64,000 bases of DNA, from sequence record NC_014467.1. The stretch is one strand, 5' to 3'. Within the stretch, counting starts at the first letter, position 1. Every line of letters begins with the position of its first letter. The notes under the pieces were generated by a model. That model did not search any database. It worked only from the letters and a program-made list of their open reading frames with translations, and was not told the DNA's origin. A program made the translations under genes and the position numbers. Source of the DNA: Escherichia phage RB16. This document shows, piece by piece, positions 5,028 through 44,694 of the stretch.

Positions 5028-5813
5028 ATGAAATCATTCAAAGAACTACTGTCTGAATCTGTTCAGACCAAAAAATTTGCTAAAACTGTTGATCTGGTTG
5101 ACCGTGGTAATGCTTCAAAAGGTCAGATCGGTTTCCTGCACTTTGCACACGGTGCTGATTACGATGTGTATGCGCCGGACTCTCACGATCTCGCCTACTT
5201 CGGTAAAGGTGTTGTTCGCCTGAAAGGTAAAACCACTGGTAAAACTCAGGCTGCATATGTTGACTGGGCGAAAGGTACGGTTTCTTTCTATAGCGGCGAT
5301 CCGGCAGATGACCTGAAATTCGACAAGCCAGCGAAATTCAAAGGCGCTTCCCTGTACAAAGAAGCCGAAGAAAATCTGGATCTGTATAATCAGTTAGCGG
5401 AAGACTTCGAAATTGATGTACCGATGGATGAAGCACTGGTGAAAGGTAAGGTGTACAAGCTCCCAAGCAACGATATGCGCTTGCTGTATACCGGACGTAC
5501 CAAAAACAAGCCTACAGGTGAATACGCTGTGTTTACGGTTGTAGATGCCTCCGGTAAGCCTCGTCTGGTATCGGGTAAACGATTTACCCAGGAATACAAA
5601 GGCGATATGCTGTCTAAACTGGTTCTCGCTGAATCGGAAGATCTGAACGAGGCCGCTAAAGGCATTCGCGAAAAAGTTATTGCGGTGTTGGTGAAGCGCG
5701 GGTTTAACGAAAAAGATGCAGAAAAGATGGTTGATAAAAACCTAAAAGATGCGATGAAAGTTCGCCCTGGTGCAACTCCAGGAAAACTAGCGGAAATCGT
5801 GAGCACCTTGTAA
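5028..5813 (+). CDS. internal-protein-like basic protein with capsid-targeting leader (Ip-like)
   Basis: N-terminus MKSFKELLSE matches the T4 internal-protein leader pattern MKTYQEFIAE cleaved by gp21 after L/I-x-E; Lys-rich 262-aa product; strong terminator downstream; ORF track gives a longer ORF from 4932. Confidence 0.6.
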   Translation: MKSFKELLSESVQTKKFAKTVDLVDRGNASKGQIGFLHFAHGADYDVYAPDSHDLAYFGKGVVRLKGKTTGKTQAAYVDWAKGTVSFYSGDPADDLKFDKPAKFKGASLYKEAEENLDLYNQLAEDFEIDVPMDEALVKGKVYKLPSNDMRLLYTGRTKNKPTGEYAVFTVVDASGKPRLVSGKRFTQEYKGDMLSKLVLAESEDLNEAAKGIREKVIAVLVKRGFNEKDAEKMVDKNLKDAMKVRPGATPGKLAEIVSTL

Positions 5814-5817
5814 AAAT

Positions 5818-5848
5818 AAAGCCCCTTCCTTTCGGTTGGGGCTTTTTT
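5818..5848. terminator. bidirectional rho-independent terminator (AAAGCCCC-loop-GGGGCTTT + T7), copy 1
   Basis: Hairpin between convergent Ip-like gene (+) and gp2 (-); near-identical hairpin at 42925-42958. Confidence 0.75.
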
Positions 5849-6702
5849 TAATATCGGTTCCAAACTTTTTTCGCGCTGTATGGTTTTCCTTTCGACTGGA
5901 AAGCCTGTGTAGGCAACCAAACTGCTTTCGCCCAGTCTTTTGGGGCTATCTCTGCAAGAGGTGATCGCAGGTGCGCAGGTAAGTATGCTTTGATCATTTG
6001 ATCTGCACCGCGCATCCCTTTCACGTTGTTCCAGTTGATTTTCAATCTGGTTTTGTTTGAAAGGCGATCTGTTGATCCGTATCCACGTTTCAAAAGTTCT
6101 TCTAAAAACTCTTGACGGGCTTTAGGTGGCGCATAGTGCAAGTTCAAACCGTACAGAACTAAATTACCCGCTTTAGAACGTCCTGAACCCAGGAAGATGA
6201 TTAGCGGGAACCGATCCCAGTATGGTAGGGTATCTTTGTATTTCGCGTCATACACGAACGTATACAATCGCCCTGTTGCTGGTTTCGCTACCCTGTGCGT
6301 TTTGATGCTGGTTTTGATGAAGTCACCAAACCAATCGGTTGAATCCTTTTGACGTTTCGCAGCAGAAACACCCACTGTAATTTTCCGTAAACTATTTCGG
6401 AAGTCGTTGATGATGTCAACTGTATGTTTTTTGCGATAGTCATTGCGTTTTCGTCGGGCTTCGGTTTCTGCTGTACGTCGCGAGATTTCATCATCAATCT
6501 GCTGTTTATAGCGGTGCATAGACTTTGTGAACGTTGCGTATGCAATCCCGTTTTCGTCCGCGAATTTTTTGGCTGTCATGCCTTTTAATTTTGCGCGTCT
6601 GAATTTAACACCCAGTTCAACCCATTCACCAAGTTTTCGCTTCGGTGGCGGTTTCGGCTTATCTTCTTCTGCGATGATCTCAAACTCAAATATAAAACTC
6701 AT
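5848..6702 (-). CDS. 2: gp2 DNA end protector protein
   Basis: 284 aa, position and size as T4 gp2; basic N-terminus. Confidence 0.7.
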   Translation of the reverse strand: MSFIFEFEIIAEEDKPKPPPKRKLGEWVELGVKFRRAKLKGMTAKKFADENGIAYATFTKSMHRYKQQIDDEISRRTAETEARRKRNDYRKKHTVDIINDFRNSLRKITVGVSAAKRQKDSTDWFGDFIKTSIKTHRVAKPATGRLYTFVYDAKYKDTLPYWDRFPLIIFLGSGRSKAGNLVLYGLNLHYAPPKARQEFLEELLKRGYGSTDRLSNKTRLKINWNNVKGMRGADQMIKAYLPAHLRSPLAEIAPKDWAKAVWLPTQAFQSKGKPYSAKKVWNRY

Positions 6703-40449: not shown

Positions 40450-41748
40450 ATGAGTGATAAACACTACACAATTCACAAGTTGATGCGTCAGTCTGCGCTT
40501 CCGTCTGGTAAACGCGAAAAGGTTATCAACGAAGCAACAGGCACGACCGATATCAACGTACAGAACACGCGCCCAGAACTGGTTTCTTTGACTCGCGCTG
40601 TGAACAACCTGATCTATCATGAACTGGTTGCTGTACAAGAAACGGATTTACCAGTAGCTACCCTTTTCGGTGTTCGTTATCGCAACCCTAATGGGGACAT
40701 GACTTTCTCCAGCGCTGCAACCTATTCAGGCCGCATATCTGGACGTACAGACATCGACGATATCGATCTGGCTAAGGCATACGTCAAAGGCGATTTATTC
40801 AAGCACGATGTCACTGACGTTGTGTATGAGGTCATCGAACCTGTAAAGCTAAACGCGCTGGATACTGATAAAGACACCGCAATCATGAAAGCTGTGTTCC
40901 AAAGTAAAATTCGTTTGGTTAGCGAAGCCGCAGACACTTCAAAATATGAAACCAGTGAAGATATCGCATCAACCTCTTTCCAGATGGATCGTTGGAACAT
41001 TCCGGTTCGTTCACGTAAGTTTAAAACTGAAATGACCGTGGAATTGATGCAGGATCTGGAAGCAAACCAGTTTGAAGCCGATGGGGTAATTGAAGATATC
41101 CTGGGTACGGTTGCAAGCGAAGAAGTCAACAAAGATATTATTCAGACGCTGATCACCGTTTCCAAACGATATAACGTTGATGGTGTAGTTGTCGATGGTA
41201 TTTTTGACGGTACAACCACATACACTGCGAAGGATGCTCCAGCATTGGGCCGCATACTCTATCAATTAGCGTGCGAAATGGGCCAAGAAATGAATAGAAC
41301 GACTTCATTTGATGCAACCTACGTCCTCGCTAGTGCTCGCGTTGTAGGCGTTCTGGCTGCGTCTGGTTGGATGACCGAAACCGACGAACAACACCCGCTG
41401 GCAACTGGTAAACTTCAAAACGGTTATTATGTCTATACCGACACGAATACACCGTTTGATTATCTGCTTACCGGATGCAAATACGATCTGGGTGATATGG
41501 ATCACGTAGGTTCTCTGTTCTTCACTCCGTACACCGAAGCGGATGATGCAGGTTCAATCAAGGTATCCGTAGATCCTGCATCACTGCAACCGAAAGTTGC
41601 TATTCTGATGCGTTACGGTTTATCTGTGAACCCATACACAACGGAATCCGACTCTGAACGGTTGACCAAAGGCGATGACTGGTCGAATCTGGCTGGTAAA
41701 TCCAAACTCAGTCAAATCGTAGGTATTAAATTACCTAAGCTGGGTTAA
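40450..41748 (+). CDS. 24: gp24 head vertex protein
   Basis: About 432 aa; start at MSDKHYTIHKL after SD (track ORF begins at 40393 inside the endonuclease gene); 7/8 late-promoter-like CATAAATA at 40407. Confidence 0.9.
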   Translation: MSDKHYTIHKLMRQSALPSGKREKVINEATGTTDINVQNTRPELVSLTRAVNNLIYHELVAVQETDLPVATLFGVRYRNPNGDMTFSSAATYSGRISGRTDIDDIDLAKAYVKGDLFKHDVTDVVYEVIEPVKLNALDTDKDTAIMKAVFQSKIRLVSEAADTSKYETSEDIASTSFQMDRWNIPVRSRKFKTEMTVELMQDLEANQFEADGVIEDILGTVASEEVNKDIIQTLITVSKRYNVDGVVVDGIFDGTTTYTAKDAPALGRILYQLACEMGQEMNRTTSFDATYVLASARVVGVLAASGWMTETDEQHPLATGKLQNGYYVYTDTNTPFDYLLTGCKYDLGDMDHVGSLFFTPYTEADDAGSIKVSVDPASLQPKVAILMRYGLSVNPYTTESDSERLTKGDDWSNLAGKSKLSQIVGIKLPKLG

Positions 41749-41797
41749 TCAAGTTTTGAGAAGACCATTATAATAACAAAGATCAAGAAGGTCAAAC

Positions 41798-41966
41798 GAG
41801 CGAAGCGAGTTTTCACGAACGAAGTGAGTGATGGGTACTACTAACTACATAATTATATTTTTATATTTTATATATAGAGAAAAATGTAGTTTTTGGTATG
41901 TTTTTTAACCAGATGTAAACTAACATTCATTCGCTTCGCTCATTCATGTACTCACTTCGTTCGTAG
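41798..41966 (+). repeat. repeat cassette copy B (same element as 4790-4960)
   Basis: Arms GAGCGAAGCGA...ACGAACGAAGTGAGTG and TCGCTTCGCTC...ACTCACTTCGTTCGT flank the shared AT-rich core. Confidence 0.8.
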
Positions 41967-41968
41967 AT

Positions 41969-41996
41969 TTGACTTCTTGATCATGATGGTTATAAT
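41969..41996 (+). promoter_or_regulatory. strong sigma70-like promoter TTGACT-16-TATAAT upstream of uvsY
   Basis: Consensus-like hexamers, 24 nt before uvsY ATG. Confidence 0.6.
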
Positions 41997-42019: not shown

Positions 42020-42442
42020 ATGGCTGAACTAAAACTTGAAGATTTACAGGCTGAACTCGAAAAGGATATGTTGATCGACCCTCTGAAACTACAGAGTGAA
42101 TCAGCAGACATTCCTAAGATTTGGTCTAAGTGGCTTCGATATCATTCGAATGCTAAGAAAAAACTGATCCAGCTACAGGCCAGGAAAGAAGCAGAAGTGA
42201 AAGAACGTCTTCTGTATTACACTGGACGGCATGAGACTGAAATGACTGATGTCATTTACACAGGTTCAGGTGAAATTAAGATTGCGATCAATGGCGATCC
42301 GAAAATTGTTGAGGTTAACAAACTGATTCAGTATTTCGAACTGATTGCAGAATTCACCAGTAAGGCGCTGGACATTGTTAAGAACAAAGGATATTCTATC
42401 AAAAATATGTTGGAAATCCGAAAACTTGAGAGTGGTGCATAA
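42020..42442 (+). CDS. uvsY: UvsY recombination mediator protein
   Basis: 140 aa; LEDLQAELEKDMLIDPLKLQSE...WSKWLRYHSNAKKKL...ERLLYYTGR pattern matches T4 UvsY as I recall it. Confidence 0.85.
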   Translation: MAELKLEDLQAELEKDMLIDPLKLQSESADIPKIWSKWLRYHSNAKKKLIQLQARKEAEVKERLLYYTGRHETEMTDVIYTGSGEIKIAINGDPKIVEVNKLIQYFELIAEFTSKALDIVKNKGYSIKNMLEIRKLESGA

Positions 42443-42443
42443 A

Positions 42444-42623
42444 ATGTCAGAACAAGAAGACTGCAAATGTGTGGTTTGTAAAAATCCGATTCCTACTGCA
42501 ACTGGGTTTGTAACTGAATCTGGTCGTGTGTGTGGTGTGATTTGTGCTCAGTATTTGATTGAGCGTAACAAAACCGGATTGAATGAAGCCGACGATCTGA
42601 ACGAAGTTCAAATGTTGTTGTAG
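42444..42623 (+). CDS. small Cys-rich protein (59 aa), uvsY.-2-like by position
   Basis: MSEQEDCKCVVCKNP...CGVICAQ; start abuts uvsY stop; track ORF 42345..42623 extends into uvsY. Confidence 0.5.
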   Translation: MSEQEDCKCVVCKNPIPTATGFVTESGRVCGVICAQYLIERNKTGLNEADDLNEVQMLL

Positions 42624-42639
42624 GTGGAATATGAGCAAA

Positions 42640-42920
42640 GTTGATTCGGGATGTTTCGAAGACGAACACCCAGATTTTTAGGGTAGGTAAAAAGTTGCCA
42701 TAGGCAAGACAAATCAAACTATAGGACAAACTTACGGATAGCCTAACGCCGAGGTGAGAACGTTAACTTTTGTCCGAGGCGGGTTTGAGTTCGAAACGCA
42801 AGGATCGGACGCTCTAAATACTGGTGTACCCCTTGTGGGGCTTGGCTGGCTGATTAATCAGCTTACGCAGTTTAGAATAGCGGTGTCGTCACCGCGTTAA
42901 AAATCAACTATGCTTCAAAA
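42640..42920 (+). ncRNA. candidate structured non-coding region (function unknown)
   Basis: About 280 bp without plausible ORF on the plus strand, several hairpins and a perfect 14-bp palindrome GCTGATTAATCAGC; ends at a strong terminator. Confidence 0.25.
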
Positions 42921-42924
42921 TTAA

Positions 42925-42958
42925 AGCCCCTTCCTTTCGGTTGGGGCTTCTTTTTTAG
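42925..42958. terminator. bidirectional rho-independent terminator, copy 2 of the hairpin at 5818-5848
   Basis: AAAGCCCCTTCCTTTCGGTTGGGGCTT followed by T-run; between convergent plus-strand region and uvsW.1. Confidence 0.75.
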
Positions 42959-43185
42959 AACTTCTCTTCTTCTCCGGTTTCAAGTTCGGCTTTGAGTTCT
43001 TCACGCCGTCCCTTGATCGCGTCACGCATTGAAATGTCATCGGATGCTGCAACTTCAACTTCCTTGACCCGCGTATTGTAATATTTTTCCAACTCTTTCA
43101 AACCGTCCAATGTACGGCACGAAGCAACTTTATTCATGAAATCATCAATTGCGGCTTCGTTAACGAATTCAGTAAAACTTTTCAT
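42955..43185 (-). CDS. uvsW.1: UvsW.1-like small protein
   Basis: 76 aa, directly downstream of uvsW on the same strand (T4 UvsW.1 is about this size). Confidence 0.6.
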   Translation of the reverse strand: MKSFTEFVNEAAIDDFMNKVASCRTLDGLKELEKYYNTRVKEVEVAASDDISMRDAIKGRREELKAELETGEEEKF

Positions 43186-43194
43186 CTTAACCTC

Positions 43195-44694
43195 TTAAAT
43201 TTCTACCTGTTTGATCACGTAGTCGAATCGTTCTTCATTGTAGATCCGCACACGTTCCATAGCATGTTTCATGCCGTAGTTAGTTGCACTATATTTATTT
43301 TTGGCTGTCTTCGACTTCGCCAGCGTTGCCAGGTTATCGACGATATCCCATACAGTTGCAAGCGCTTTCGAACCATGCTTACGCAACACGCGCCCGATCG
43401 ACTGCTTAACAACAACGGCAGATTTGCAAGGGTGTGCAAAAATGATGTGATGCAGGTTCTTGATTGAAATACCTGTACTCAGTACCCCGATCGAACCGAT
43501 TACAATCAAACCCTTTGTTGATTCCGCAATCTTTTTCATTTCGTTGCGGTCGTCAATGTCCGTATCGCCGTTGATCAATACAACGTTGTCATAAACCTTG
43601 CTTAACTTCTCGTACAGCCATTTTCCGTGTTCTTTATACCGGAACATCACGAATGTGTTTTCGTTCTTCTCACGGGCTAATTTAAGCGCTAATTTTAGAA
43701 TCCATGCGTTGCGCCGTGTATGGCTTGTAACGTATTTGATTTCAGTCTGGTAGTCTGCACCCTTCAATTTCTTGATCTCTTCTTCTTTGTACCGAAGGAA
43801 GATTGTGTTAATTTTCAGGTTGGTGACTTGTCCATCATCCATCAAACGACGCGTATCAACTGGTTTAAAGACTTTACCGAACGCACCGATGTATTGCATC
43901 ATGTTCGTTTTCCCTTCTTTCAGGGAACCGGATAAACCCAGTTTGAAAATGCACTGATCCATTGTGTCGATAATCTTTTTGATGCTCAACCCTGTTGATA
44001 GGTGGCATTCATCAACCATCAGGCACATGAACTGCTGGAACCACTCAGCAGGCATTTTAACCGCTGATTGCCAGGTTGAAACATAGATTAGCGCGTTGCT
44101 GTTCTTAGCAGTACCGGAACGAATACCCAACATTGCCGATTTCGGAAACAGTCGATAGTTTGCGATGTCCTCAATCATTTGGTCAACCAGCGCCGTAGTT
44201 GGAACGATAATCAGCACTTTTCCGCTGTAATGTTCCAGACACCAACGGGAGATAAGACCCTGAATTAGAGATTTACCCGCTGACGTTGGCAGGTTCAGAA
44301 CTCCTCGACGGTTTTTGATACCGTGGAATACGGATTCGCGCTGATACCAGTAAGGATCGATCTGTTTGTCACCGTCATAAACTGGATGCTCGTTAACCCA
44401 CTTGTCAAAATCTTCTTGCGTGATATCCTCTGTCTCGTGGATCTTCGGATCTACCCAGATTGAATAACCGCGTGATTCTGCGAATTTTGTTACCAGATAG
44501 GCTAACCCATACGGGAGTTTTCCGTTGTAGTCCATCAGGTAAATGTACCCGTTCCATCCACCATATTTGTATTTGGCTTGATACTGATAGCCTGGAGGCT
44601 GGAATGAAAAATAGTCACGAAGTTCATAGACAATGTTTGCTTCTGCCTGAATCTGTACGTGGCTTGTGTTTAAAAATTTGACTTCAATATCCAC
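43195..44694 (-). CDS. uvsW: UvsW RNA-DNA and DNA-DNA helicase
   Basis: 499 aa; Walker A LPTSAGKSL, DECH box MVDECH, SF2 helicase C-terminal motifs. Confidence 0.85.
   Translation of the reverse strand: MDIEVKFLNTSHVQIQAEANIVYELRDYFSFQPPGYQYQAKYKYGGWNGYIYLMDYNGKLPYGLAYLVTKFAESRGYSIWVDPKIHETEDITQEDFDKWVNEHPVYDGDKQIDPYWYQRESVFHGIKNRRGVLNLPTSAGKSLIQGLISRWCLEHYSGKVLIIVPTTALVDQMIEDIANYRLFPKSAMLGIRSGTAKNSNALIYVSTWQSAVKMPAEWFQQFMCLMVDECHLSTGLSIKKIIDTMDQCIFKLGLSGSLKEGKTNMMQYIGAFGKVFKPVDTRRLMDDGQVTNLKINTIFLRYKEEEIKKLKGADYQTEIKYVTSHTRRNAWILKLALKLAREKNENTFVMFRYKEHGKWLYEKLSKVYDNVVLINGDTDIDDRNEMKKIAESTKGLIVIGSIGVLSTGISIKNLHHIIFAHPCKSAVVVKQSIGRVLRKHGSKALATVWDIVDNLATLAKSKTAKNKYSATNYGMKHAMERVRIYNEERFDYVIKQVEI

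Follow-up and report, generated by a model that had tools for sequence, protein, structure and literature searches.

Orphan RNA motifs with complex folds are reportedly known from comparative genomics, among them raiA and the riboswitch and ribozyme candidates of Breaker and Weinberg, and covarying loop-loop pairing is used by one phage RNA, the pRNA of phi29. In T4-type phages, modular shuffling is driven by PeSL (promoter-early stem-loop) cassettes (PMC2839356, PMC4122927). The stretch considered here, 64,000 nt of Escherichia phage RB16 (NC_014467.1; "the window"), has a spacer between the uvsY operon and uvsW.1 which would be a stack of RNA-level modules on the uvsY-sense strand. Its main element is a 146-nt four-way-junction RNA with helices P1 to P4 (42675–42820, + strand), called module B and defined by a covariance model, its fold and covariation. 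The comparisons below show B to be a genuine RNA-level element with a specific fold, present in a single copy, accessory, exchanged as a cassette and portable across transcript contexts. A sequence-only reading of this region had proposed a conserved structured RNA, and that proposal stands: it is on the + strand, upstream of the terminator, and a conservation check gave compensatory changes in related phages. The four-way junction itself was absent from that reading, however, and the hairpins listed in it are minor parts of the whole.

The spacers of at least 25 relatives were compared by reading, and were resolved into discrete modules between a small open reading frame (ORF) and the terminator. 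In the window copy of B, the 5' strand of P1, UUUAGGGU (42677–42684), pairs with GCUCUAAA at 42811–42818. The joining segment J1/2, UAGGUAAAAAG (42685–42694), makes with U42684 the near-invariant UAGGUAA.A, and is followed by the almost invariant P2 hairpin UUGCC-AUA-GGCAA (42695–42707), whose outer pair, otherwise U-A, is A-U in Slopekvirus and phage Phynn (UA in nine, AU in four). J2/3, GACAAA (42708–42713), is invariant except in Phynn, where it is GACGAA. P3 (42714–42788) is long and variable apart from a conserved helix at its base, the pairs of which covary, and P4 (42789–42810) reads GUUCGA-AA-C[GCAA]G-GA-UCGGAC, with a GCAA tetraloop of the GNRA type at 42798–42801; a lone G links it to the 3' strand of P1. 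The core motifs (UAGG.AA.A, UGCC-AYA-GGCA, GACAAA, the GCAA-capped P4 and the single G between P4 and P1) all lie at 42684–42713 and 42789–42811. The same four-way junction is the minimum-free-energy fold in four divergent lineages, each folded independently.

Within P3, the apical loop CGCC (42747–42750) is able to pair with GGCG in an internal loop (42778–42781), the conserved GAGGC internal loop being the partner of the apical loop in this arm. The partners, which covary in three lineages, are CGCC/GGCG in the window, AGCC/GGCU in Yersinia phage JC221, UUUGCC/GGCAAA in Slopekvirus and GCC/GGC in a bacterial copy described below. This loop-to-internal-loop pairing, seen in few lineages, is tentatively put forward as a candidate pseudoknot, and the fold as a whole is probably stabilised by tertiary contacts.

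Covariation was assessed in two alignments, a plain MAFFT alignment of 8 sequences and a model-fitted one of 13 sequences (about 8 lineages). In the first, 94% of cells are paired and 15 of the 25 pairs are altered on both sides; in the second, 93.4% of cells are standard pairs and 19 of 25 are altered on both sides; none of 500 shuffles was as high in either case. Sliding the 3' partner by 1–3 columns leaves just 25–45% of cells paired with 8 sequences and 28–46% with 13. Both-side changes affect six of the seven P1 pairs (for example AGGG/CUCU, AGGA/UCCU, GCGG/CCGC, GCUGG/CCAGC and GAGAG/CUCUC). P4 is the most informative helix, with six of seven pairs covarying and the tetraloop closed by C-G, A-U or G-C. 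Because of this covariation the structure is taken to be more than chance, despite a thermodynamic signal that is modest (z = -3.1 for the spacer fold overall, -3.0 for its 3' hairpins).

The 5' strand of P4 also accounts for a string, GTTCGAAAC (42789–42797), that had been likened to a tRNA T-loop. The string is present, but the T-loop reading fails: it is the 5' strand of P4 (GUUCGA, paired with UCGGAC) together with an internal loop, and homologues differ here while their partners compensate. In place of GUUCGA they have GUUUCC, GCGAU, GAACC or GUUCUC, and in every case the opposite strand has changed to match; judging from these sequences, the resemblance to tRNA is coincidental.

Module B has 10 G-U pairs and no A-C mismatches, which assigns the RNA to the uvsY-sense (+) strand, and GCAA reads as a GNRA loop on that strand only. 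A minus-strand RNA is rejected on this asymmetry and on the promoter orientation in L028, Phynn and the bacterium; the minus-strand terminator listed by a scanner at 42707–42695 is the reverse complement of P2 and J1/2.

A covariance model, R1, was built from the 8-sequence alignment. Its only match in the 64-kb window is this B (161.5 bits, E 8.5e-40), and it recovers lineages outside its training set, namely L028 (62.6 bits), L066 (60.3) and Pantoea phage Phynn (56.3). The idea that models for tRNA, small RNA (sRNA), riboswitch or group I intron might identify the region was not borne out, as no Rfam 15 family matched. With all 4227 models and E ≤ 10, the region gave only weak alignments of terminator hairpins to unrelated leader and sRNA models, the best of these look-alikes reaching 17–18 bits compared to gathering scores of 50–55. 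The same database gave no relevant match for module B alone and no known ribozyme model that fits it, and six related loci with other modules (C and D, below) gave nothing at E ≤ 1. ARAGORN called no tRNA genes in the whole window; with the Rfam tRNA models negative as well, identity as a tRNA or tmRNA is rejected. Homology to T4 rnaC and rnaD is likewise ruled out, since R1 run on T4 positions 66000–76000 gave no match except a 6.6-bit chance one outside rnaC/rnaD. The core sequence of B was not found in the literature searched, and searches on uvsY/uvsW non-coding RNA and Slopekvirus transcriptomes turned up nothing relevant. As far as these comparisons of sequence go, module B is a previously uncatalogued RNA family. 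T4-type phages are among the best-studied viruses, yet there is an unannotated RNA here with riboswitch- or ribozyme-like architecture; with a covariance model and coordinates available, the element can be tested directly.

The spacer after the small ORF is non-coding. Stops are found in all six frames across 42660–42840, and a mechanical 48-amino-acid (aa) ORF starting with GTG (42754–42900) has a JC221 homologue that is stopped after 16 codons. The view that the + strand has no credible ORF between 42640 and 42920 therefore holds for most of this interval, but its first 42 nt fall within a 16-codon ORF, MSKVDSGCFEDEHPDF (42631–42681, + strand), with a Shine-Dalgarno sequence, GGTGGA. By spacer comparison this is a deletion derivative of the small ORF of relatives, which has 28 aa in RB43; the form of Lw1, Invicta and Citrof4 has 45 aa (phrog_12503). 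Its UAG stop (42679–42681) is inside the P1 5' strand. The small ORFs of the window, L002, L005, L008 and L009 have one or two copies of an acidic DE(H/R)PD(F/L) motif, and the shorter ones (window, CfP1, KLB25) resemble deletions between two such copies.

In several GenBank records, minus-strand hypothetical ORFs overlie modules B and C: JC221_170 (L006 2557–2733) and two in Klebsiella phage Roth22 (L008 1163–1252 and 1233–1526). From sequence comparison, they are probably spurious, since neither the window nor other lineages keep them as ORFs, and the hypothetical ORFs placed over RNA in these records merit removal. Protein coding by B is ruled out by the stops in every frame and by this lack of conservation.

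In a blastn comparison with 50,697 phage records, the 3' end of the spacer is kept in 174, while the remainder is mosaic; B is present in about 60 of the 174 related records. The type found in Miller, a Citrobacter phage, also occurs in KKP_3664, CfP1, Xman, Lw1, Invicta and iPHaGe-KPN-11i. JC221 has a diverged B, and many Klebsiella Slopekvirus phages have a type with a very different P3. The KP15-like phages of Slopekvirus have no B, and they, Taquito, IME-CF2 and EcRAM-01 have clean empty sites. Invicta has B without the optional module E and Taquito has E without B, despite the same small ORF. The minimal spacer (IME-CF2, EcRAM-01) consists of the ORF, a TAAATA box, hairpin modules H and F, and the terminator, and more distant T4-like phages have, beyond the Cys-rich ORF, only a single hairpin and then the terminator.

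Metagenome and protein-anchored retrieval added L028/L041, L066, L068, L063/64 and Phynn to this set; two phage copies and a bacterial copy came from the metagenome scan. The sister phages L028 and L029 differ in that the first has the full scaffold and the second only a hairpin resembling the interior of P3, a contrast that supports the view of the P1/P2/P4 core as a scaffold and of P3 as a variable arm. No true B emerged from two pattern scans of 100,044 species-representative genomes, only a chance match in a tandem repeat, and a relaxed scan of IMG/VR gave known copies and weak matches at E > 0.1 only. Host mimicry or a plasmid origin is rejected, as B had no blastn match among 5,426 E. 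coli genomes or 72,556 plasmids. A multi-copy element, whether a miniature inverted-repeat transposable element (MITE) or a PeSL, is also rejected: there is one B and one H in the 64 kb, only the terminator being repeated. B likewise occurs just once in 20 kb of the bacterial contig.

Several other modules (C, D, E and F) and a tRNA-like gene of Phynn are swapped at the same locus. Modules C (about 135 nt) and D (about 190 nt, a long non-coding module of relatives' spacers) are absent from the window; RB43, Lw1, EC-W2, JC221, Citrof4 and Slopekvirus carry one or both. C has eight pairs with compensatory change, and in JC221 and L063 modules B, D and C stand in tandem, giving a non-coding stretch of 760–830 nt. 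What this spacer exchanges is thus structured RNA cassettes (B, C, D, E and the tRNA-like gene) and not ORFs, that is, non-coding cargo in an accessory hot spot, and from its sequence the uvsY-sense spacer looks like a small RNA gene region. The Phynn gene (L067 2501–2569, MN038175) is 69 nt long and uvsY-sense, and lies directly 3' of the Cys-rich ORF, upstream of small ORFs and B; ARAGORN calls it tRNA-Ser, with anticodon GCT at an unusual position.

All phage copies of B adjoin a TAAATA box. That of the window, TCTAAATA (42813–42820, + strand), matches the T4-type late promoter TATAAATA at seven of eight positions and overlaps the P1 3' strand, with GTACCCC starting 5 nt further on. Two arrangements are found. 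In the first (window, JC221 and Slopekvirus), the UAG of the small ORF is within the P1 5' strand, and the box overlaps the P1 3' strand, 5–6 nt before the next module. In the second (L028, L066 and Phynn), P1 follows the box at a distance of 5 nt, and the box is an exact TATAAATA in two of the three (L028, Phynn); with this placement, B would be the 5' end of a late non-coding RNA extending to the terminator. Of the copies with the first arrangement, JC221 has the box as CATAAATA, L068 as an exact TATAAATA and Slopekvirus as CCTAAATA; the B-less KP15-like phages have an exact TATAAATA 6 nt before H. The enrichment of TATAAATA in the window (9 observed, 2.6 expected) indicates that the phage uses T4-type late promoters; the degenerate TCTAAATA is late-promoter-like in sequence, and a candidate for one. 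A promoter scan gave no sigma-70 promoter in the spacer.

The only non-phage occurrence of B came from the metagenome scan, on a 25%-GC contig. The same sequence is found on a 71-kb contig with hisS above the curated cut-off and MacAB/TolC-type efflux genes, which identify it as bacterial chromosome. Here a candidate -10 element, TATAAC (located by eye), precedes B by a few nucleotides, and 25–30 nt separate the end of B from the Shine-Dalgarno sequence of a gene for a NUDIX hydrolase, which places B as a promoter-proximal operon leader. The NUDIX gene is followed by an ankyrin-repeat gene, and microbial-type PARG and GmrSD genes are nearby. The first 30 nt of the core are the same as in JC221, and at 47% G+C the bacterial B is distinct from its host genome. 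Neither a terminator nor anti-Shine-Dalgarno pairing was seen after P1 of this copy. NUDIX homologues at 50–55% identity have no B element, and an association with NUDIX as a general rule is rejected on that account; the presence of the same core in an unrelated bacterial NUDIX leader is nevertheless a clue to function. In one sequencing run, SRR31968052, the AT-rich bacterium with the B-like leader (L057) and a T4-like phage whose spacer has no B (L069) come from the same sample, a co-occurrence that could bear on how the element moves between them.

The reading preferred here, with a probability of roughly 0.5, is that B is an autonomous accessory RNA domain which would act through its fold, by binding a partner that may be a protein or a small molecule. 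From the layout, it would be transcribed as the 3' part of the uvsY-operon RNA, starting from the near-consensus sigma-70-type promoter ahead of uvsY (TTGACT-16-TATAAT, 41969–41996); there is no terminator before 42926, and the stop of the 16-codon ORF would be buried in P1. The P1/P2/P4 core would serve as the recognised scaffold and P3 as a variable plug-in arm. The TAAATA box and the H hairpin, both short and conserved, would be the junctions at which B is gained and lost by cassette exchange. A number of points weigh against this. Folded alone, module B has z = -2.3. The lineages that can be counted as independent are only about eight; several rows are near-identical, so that the cell counts overstate independent events, and model-fitted alignments favour structure because their rows are fitted to the model, although the plain MAFFT alignment, which is not model-fitted, yields the same picture of covariation. 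The two bacterial strains are 100% identical in their intergenic sequence, and so represent one lineage and give no evidence of constraint within it.

A bolder reading, doubtful but with consequences that deserve stating, is that B founds a new functional class, either a self-cleaving ribozyme or a metabolite or signal aptamer, carried by T4-like phages as exchangeable cargo and co-opted by a bacterium. If so, the cargo could process the late non-coding RNA, or sense or sequester a nucleotide-derived molecule, and the bacterium would have co-opted B as the leader of a NUDIX operon near PARG and GmrSD genes.

The position of B is open to a plainer explanation. B is always at the end of a transcription unit, either after a stop codon and 105 nt before the terminator, or just after a promoter box as in L028, Phynn and the bacterial copy, and its neighbours H and F are ordinary 3'-end hairpins. 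It might therefore be a cis-acting end-protection or processing element, a stable fold that would keep RNases from the 3' region of the uvsY-operon mRNA or from the 5' end of the late or bacterial transcript, or that would guide RNase cleavage, with no partner besides the degradation machinery. This is improbable rather than far-fetched: protection needs simple hairpins only, and the invariant junctions and P2, the GNRA tetraloop and the covarying pseudoknot exceed that. Close relatives also manage without B.

Read as a small-molecule aptamer in its own right, B would be a riboswitch of the NUDIX operon in the bacterium and, in phages, a sensor or sponge for a nucleotide-derived metabolite or signal. 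Its complexity and pattern of conservation are typical of aptamers, and the bacterial copy lies between the candidate -10 element and the NUDIX Shine-Dalgarno, near PARG and GmrSD. Of the properties expected of a riboswitch, B has the complex, conserved, aptamer-like fold, and lacks the combination of a leader position, a consistent class of downstream gene and an expression platform. None of the latter is visible after P1, phage copies, which follow ORFs at their 3' side or are free-standing, have no downstream gene to regulate, and with the element missing from the NUDIX homologues its presence in a single bacterial lineage makes the aptamer unlikely.

The chance of a new class of self-cleaving ribozyme that would cut polycistronic RNA is smaller still. 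Known phage self-cleaving ribozymes occur in mixed genetic contexts, and so does B (downstream of an ORF, behind a promoter or within a bacterial leader); it also has a junction core of invariant unpaired nucleotides, and other structured modules stand in tandem with it. Few orphan structured RNAs are ribozymes, though, and B matches no known ribozyme model and offers no cleavage site that could be inferred.

Processive antitermination, in the manner of HK022 put or the Bacillus EAR element, with RNA polymerase modified to pass downstream hairpins or terminators and to run antisense into uvsW.1 and uvsW, is very unlikely. B is promoter-proximal or operon-internal and upstream of hairpins or terminators in all its contexts, and its size would fit a cis-acting structured RNA, but the terminator is strongly conserved and bidirectional; there is no similarity to put or EAR (Rfam negative), and no evidence of read-through. 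Least credible is an account in terms of DNA-level features (a palindrome operator, a recombination or origin site) or functionless gene remnants, for which a spacer that is a hot spot of recombination and has its indels at short sequences shared between relatives, the deletion-remnant status of the 16-codon ORF and the perfect palindrome can be cited, but in which compensatory changes and a G-U/A-C asymmetry that show selection on a single-stranded + product have no place, any more than a near-identical core in an unrelated 25%-GC genome, unexpected for junk, while the palindrome is within chance and optional.

Downstream of B, the remaining modules of the window are simpler. Module H (42826–42844, + strand) is the hairpin CCCC-UUGU-GGGG within GUACCCCUUGUGGGGCUUG, and forms the junction between cassettes; as DNA, CCCC-TTGT-GGGG is at 42829–42840, within GTACCCCTTGTGGGGC (42826–41). 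It is single copy in the window. All relatives have H, with the G+C stem kept and the loop variable (UUGU, GAAA, UUUGA, UUCGA), and in distant T4-like phages an equivalent hairpin with a different stem stands right before the terminator.

Module E (42845–42871, + strand) is an optional 27-nt cassette containing the palindrome GCTGATTAATCAGC (42849–42862). It is precisely missing in Invicta, CfP1, IME-CF2, EcRAM-01 and KLB25, and present and identical in Miller, Citrof4, Taquito and PF-CE2. As RNA it is predicted to form a 5-bp hairpin with a UUAA loop; because E is invariant where present, this structure cannot be judged by covariation. The palindrome had also been suggested as an operator, a suggestion that finds no footing here: GCTGATTAATCAGC is the sole perfect 14-mer palindrome in the window, where random sequence would give 4.5 ± 2.3, so the number is not above chance; it lies in a 27-nt indel, and nothing points to a cognate repressor. 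Window-wide, 14-bp perfect palindromes are under-represented (1 vs 4.5), which fits restriction-site avoidance.

Module F (42872–42925, + strand), UUAGAAUA-GCGGUG-UCGU-CACCGC-GUUAAA, has its stem at 42880–42895, followed by a conserved A/U-rich single-stranded stretch. The stem is kept and the loop variable (UCGU, GAAGA, ACGA, AACGA); in L028, L029 and L066 it reads GUGUG/CACAC, a change that includes two compensatory pairs, and its flanks are conserved. H and F are conserved 3'-end hairpins. The architecture of the 3' 80 nt, in which F, the A/U-rich stretch and a terminator with its U tail follow each other, is present and conserved, and by analogy might resemble the 3' module of Hfq-type sRNAs.

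The terminator (42926–42956) is intrinsic and bidirectional, with a hairpin, GCCCCUUCC-UUUC-GGUUGGGGC (42926–42947), an A-run before it and a T-run after. It is common to the uvsY operon (+) and to uvsW–uvsW.1 (-), and is kept in the 174 phage records; a simple scanner did not list it, possibly from its internal mismatches. The sequence-only reading was accurate about this shared terminator, about the hairpins CCCC-TTGT-GGGG and GCGGTG-TCGT-CACCGC (42880–42895, the loop being the four bases TCGT), and about the existence of the perfect 14-bp palindrome. A second copy of the terminator lies about 37 kb away (5812–5849 vs 42917–42954, 36 of 38 positions identical), and explains why blastn finds a second place in most related genomes.

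The surrounding genes are those of a T4-type phage. The window is 98–99% identical to Miller, which is T4-type and RB43-like and belongs to the genus Pseudotevenvirus. The local order starts with a gp24-like gene ending at 41748, followed by uvsY (42020–42442, +, phrog_231), the Cys-rich ORF of 59 aa (42444–42623, +, phrog_1043), the spacer, uvsW.1 (42955–43185, -, phrog_1143) and uvsW (43195–44694, -). Some relatives have an interruption on the uvsW/uvsW.1 side: in L063/L064, a 241-aa ORF with a weak NUMOD3 match (homing-endonuclease-like) is found between uvsW and uvsW.1 (L063 889–1614), and the KLB25 record (L009, misc_feature 1474–2672) gives the boundaries of a uvsW intron as undetermined.

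Between the gp24-like gene and uvsY there is also a set of nested inverted repeats (41767–41996), centred near 41866. Its members are a 24-nt pair (79% identity), one of 14 nt, one of 15 nt that is perfect and, innermost, an A/T-rich palindrome. On the outer arms lie two sigma-70-like promoters close to consensus, which point opposite ways: the one facing uvsY is TTGACT-16-TATAAT, and the one facing gene 24, on the minus strand, is TTGACC-17-TATAAT. The T4 origin ori(uvsY) is located at the uvsY promoter, and on this analogy the repeats may be origin-like, or else a mirrored promoter cassette.

Compared to known systems, module B is like a tRNA in having four helices round one junction and a 7-bp closing helix. 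Unlike a tRNA, it has an 11-nt J1/2, a 3-nt P2 loop, a third arm of 75 nt and a 10-nt P4 cap with GCAA. The T4 rnaC and rnaD species (species 1 and 2 RNAs, of the tRNA cluster) are, like B, small structured RNAs of a T4-type phage; rnaC, however, has a canonical GGTTCGAATCC T-arm, which B does not, and the genomic locus differs. A further likeness is that the B of Phynn has a tRNA-like gene in the same spacer. HK022 put, Bacillus EAR and phi29 pRNA are comparable as phage-encoded or operon-internal structured RNAs acting via their fold, but have no sequence or model similarity to B; the candidate P3 pseudoknot might act like the covarying loop-loop pairing of phi29 pRNA.

The likeness to PeSL cassettes is one of arrangement. 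In both, short conserved regulatory sequences, here the TAAATA box and H, flank indels between close relatives and resemble exchange points; unlike in PeSL, the box is late-promoter-like, H is single copy in the window, and the cargo is structured RNA instead of ORFs. Orphan RNA motifs differ from B in that B is very rare (T4-like Pseudotevenvirus, Slopekvirus and relatives, and one bacterial lineage) and its gene context is inconsistent. They are nonetheless the closest kind, with a size of about 150 nt, a multi-helix junction, invariant junction nucleotides, a GNRA tetraloop and a pseudoknot, and with covariation as the basis on which they are defined.

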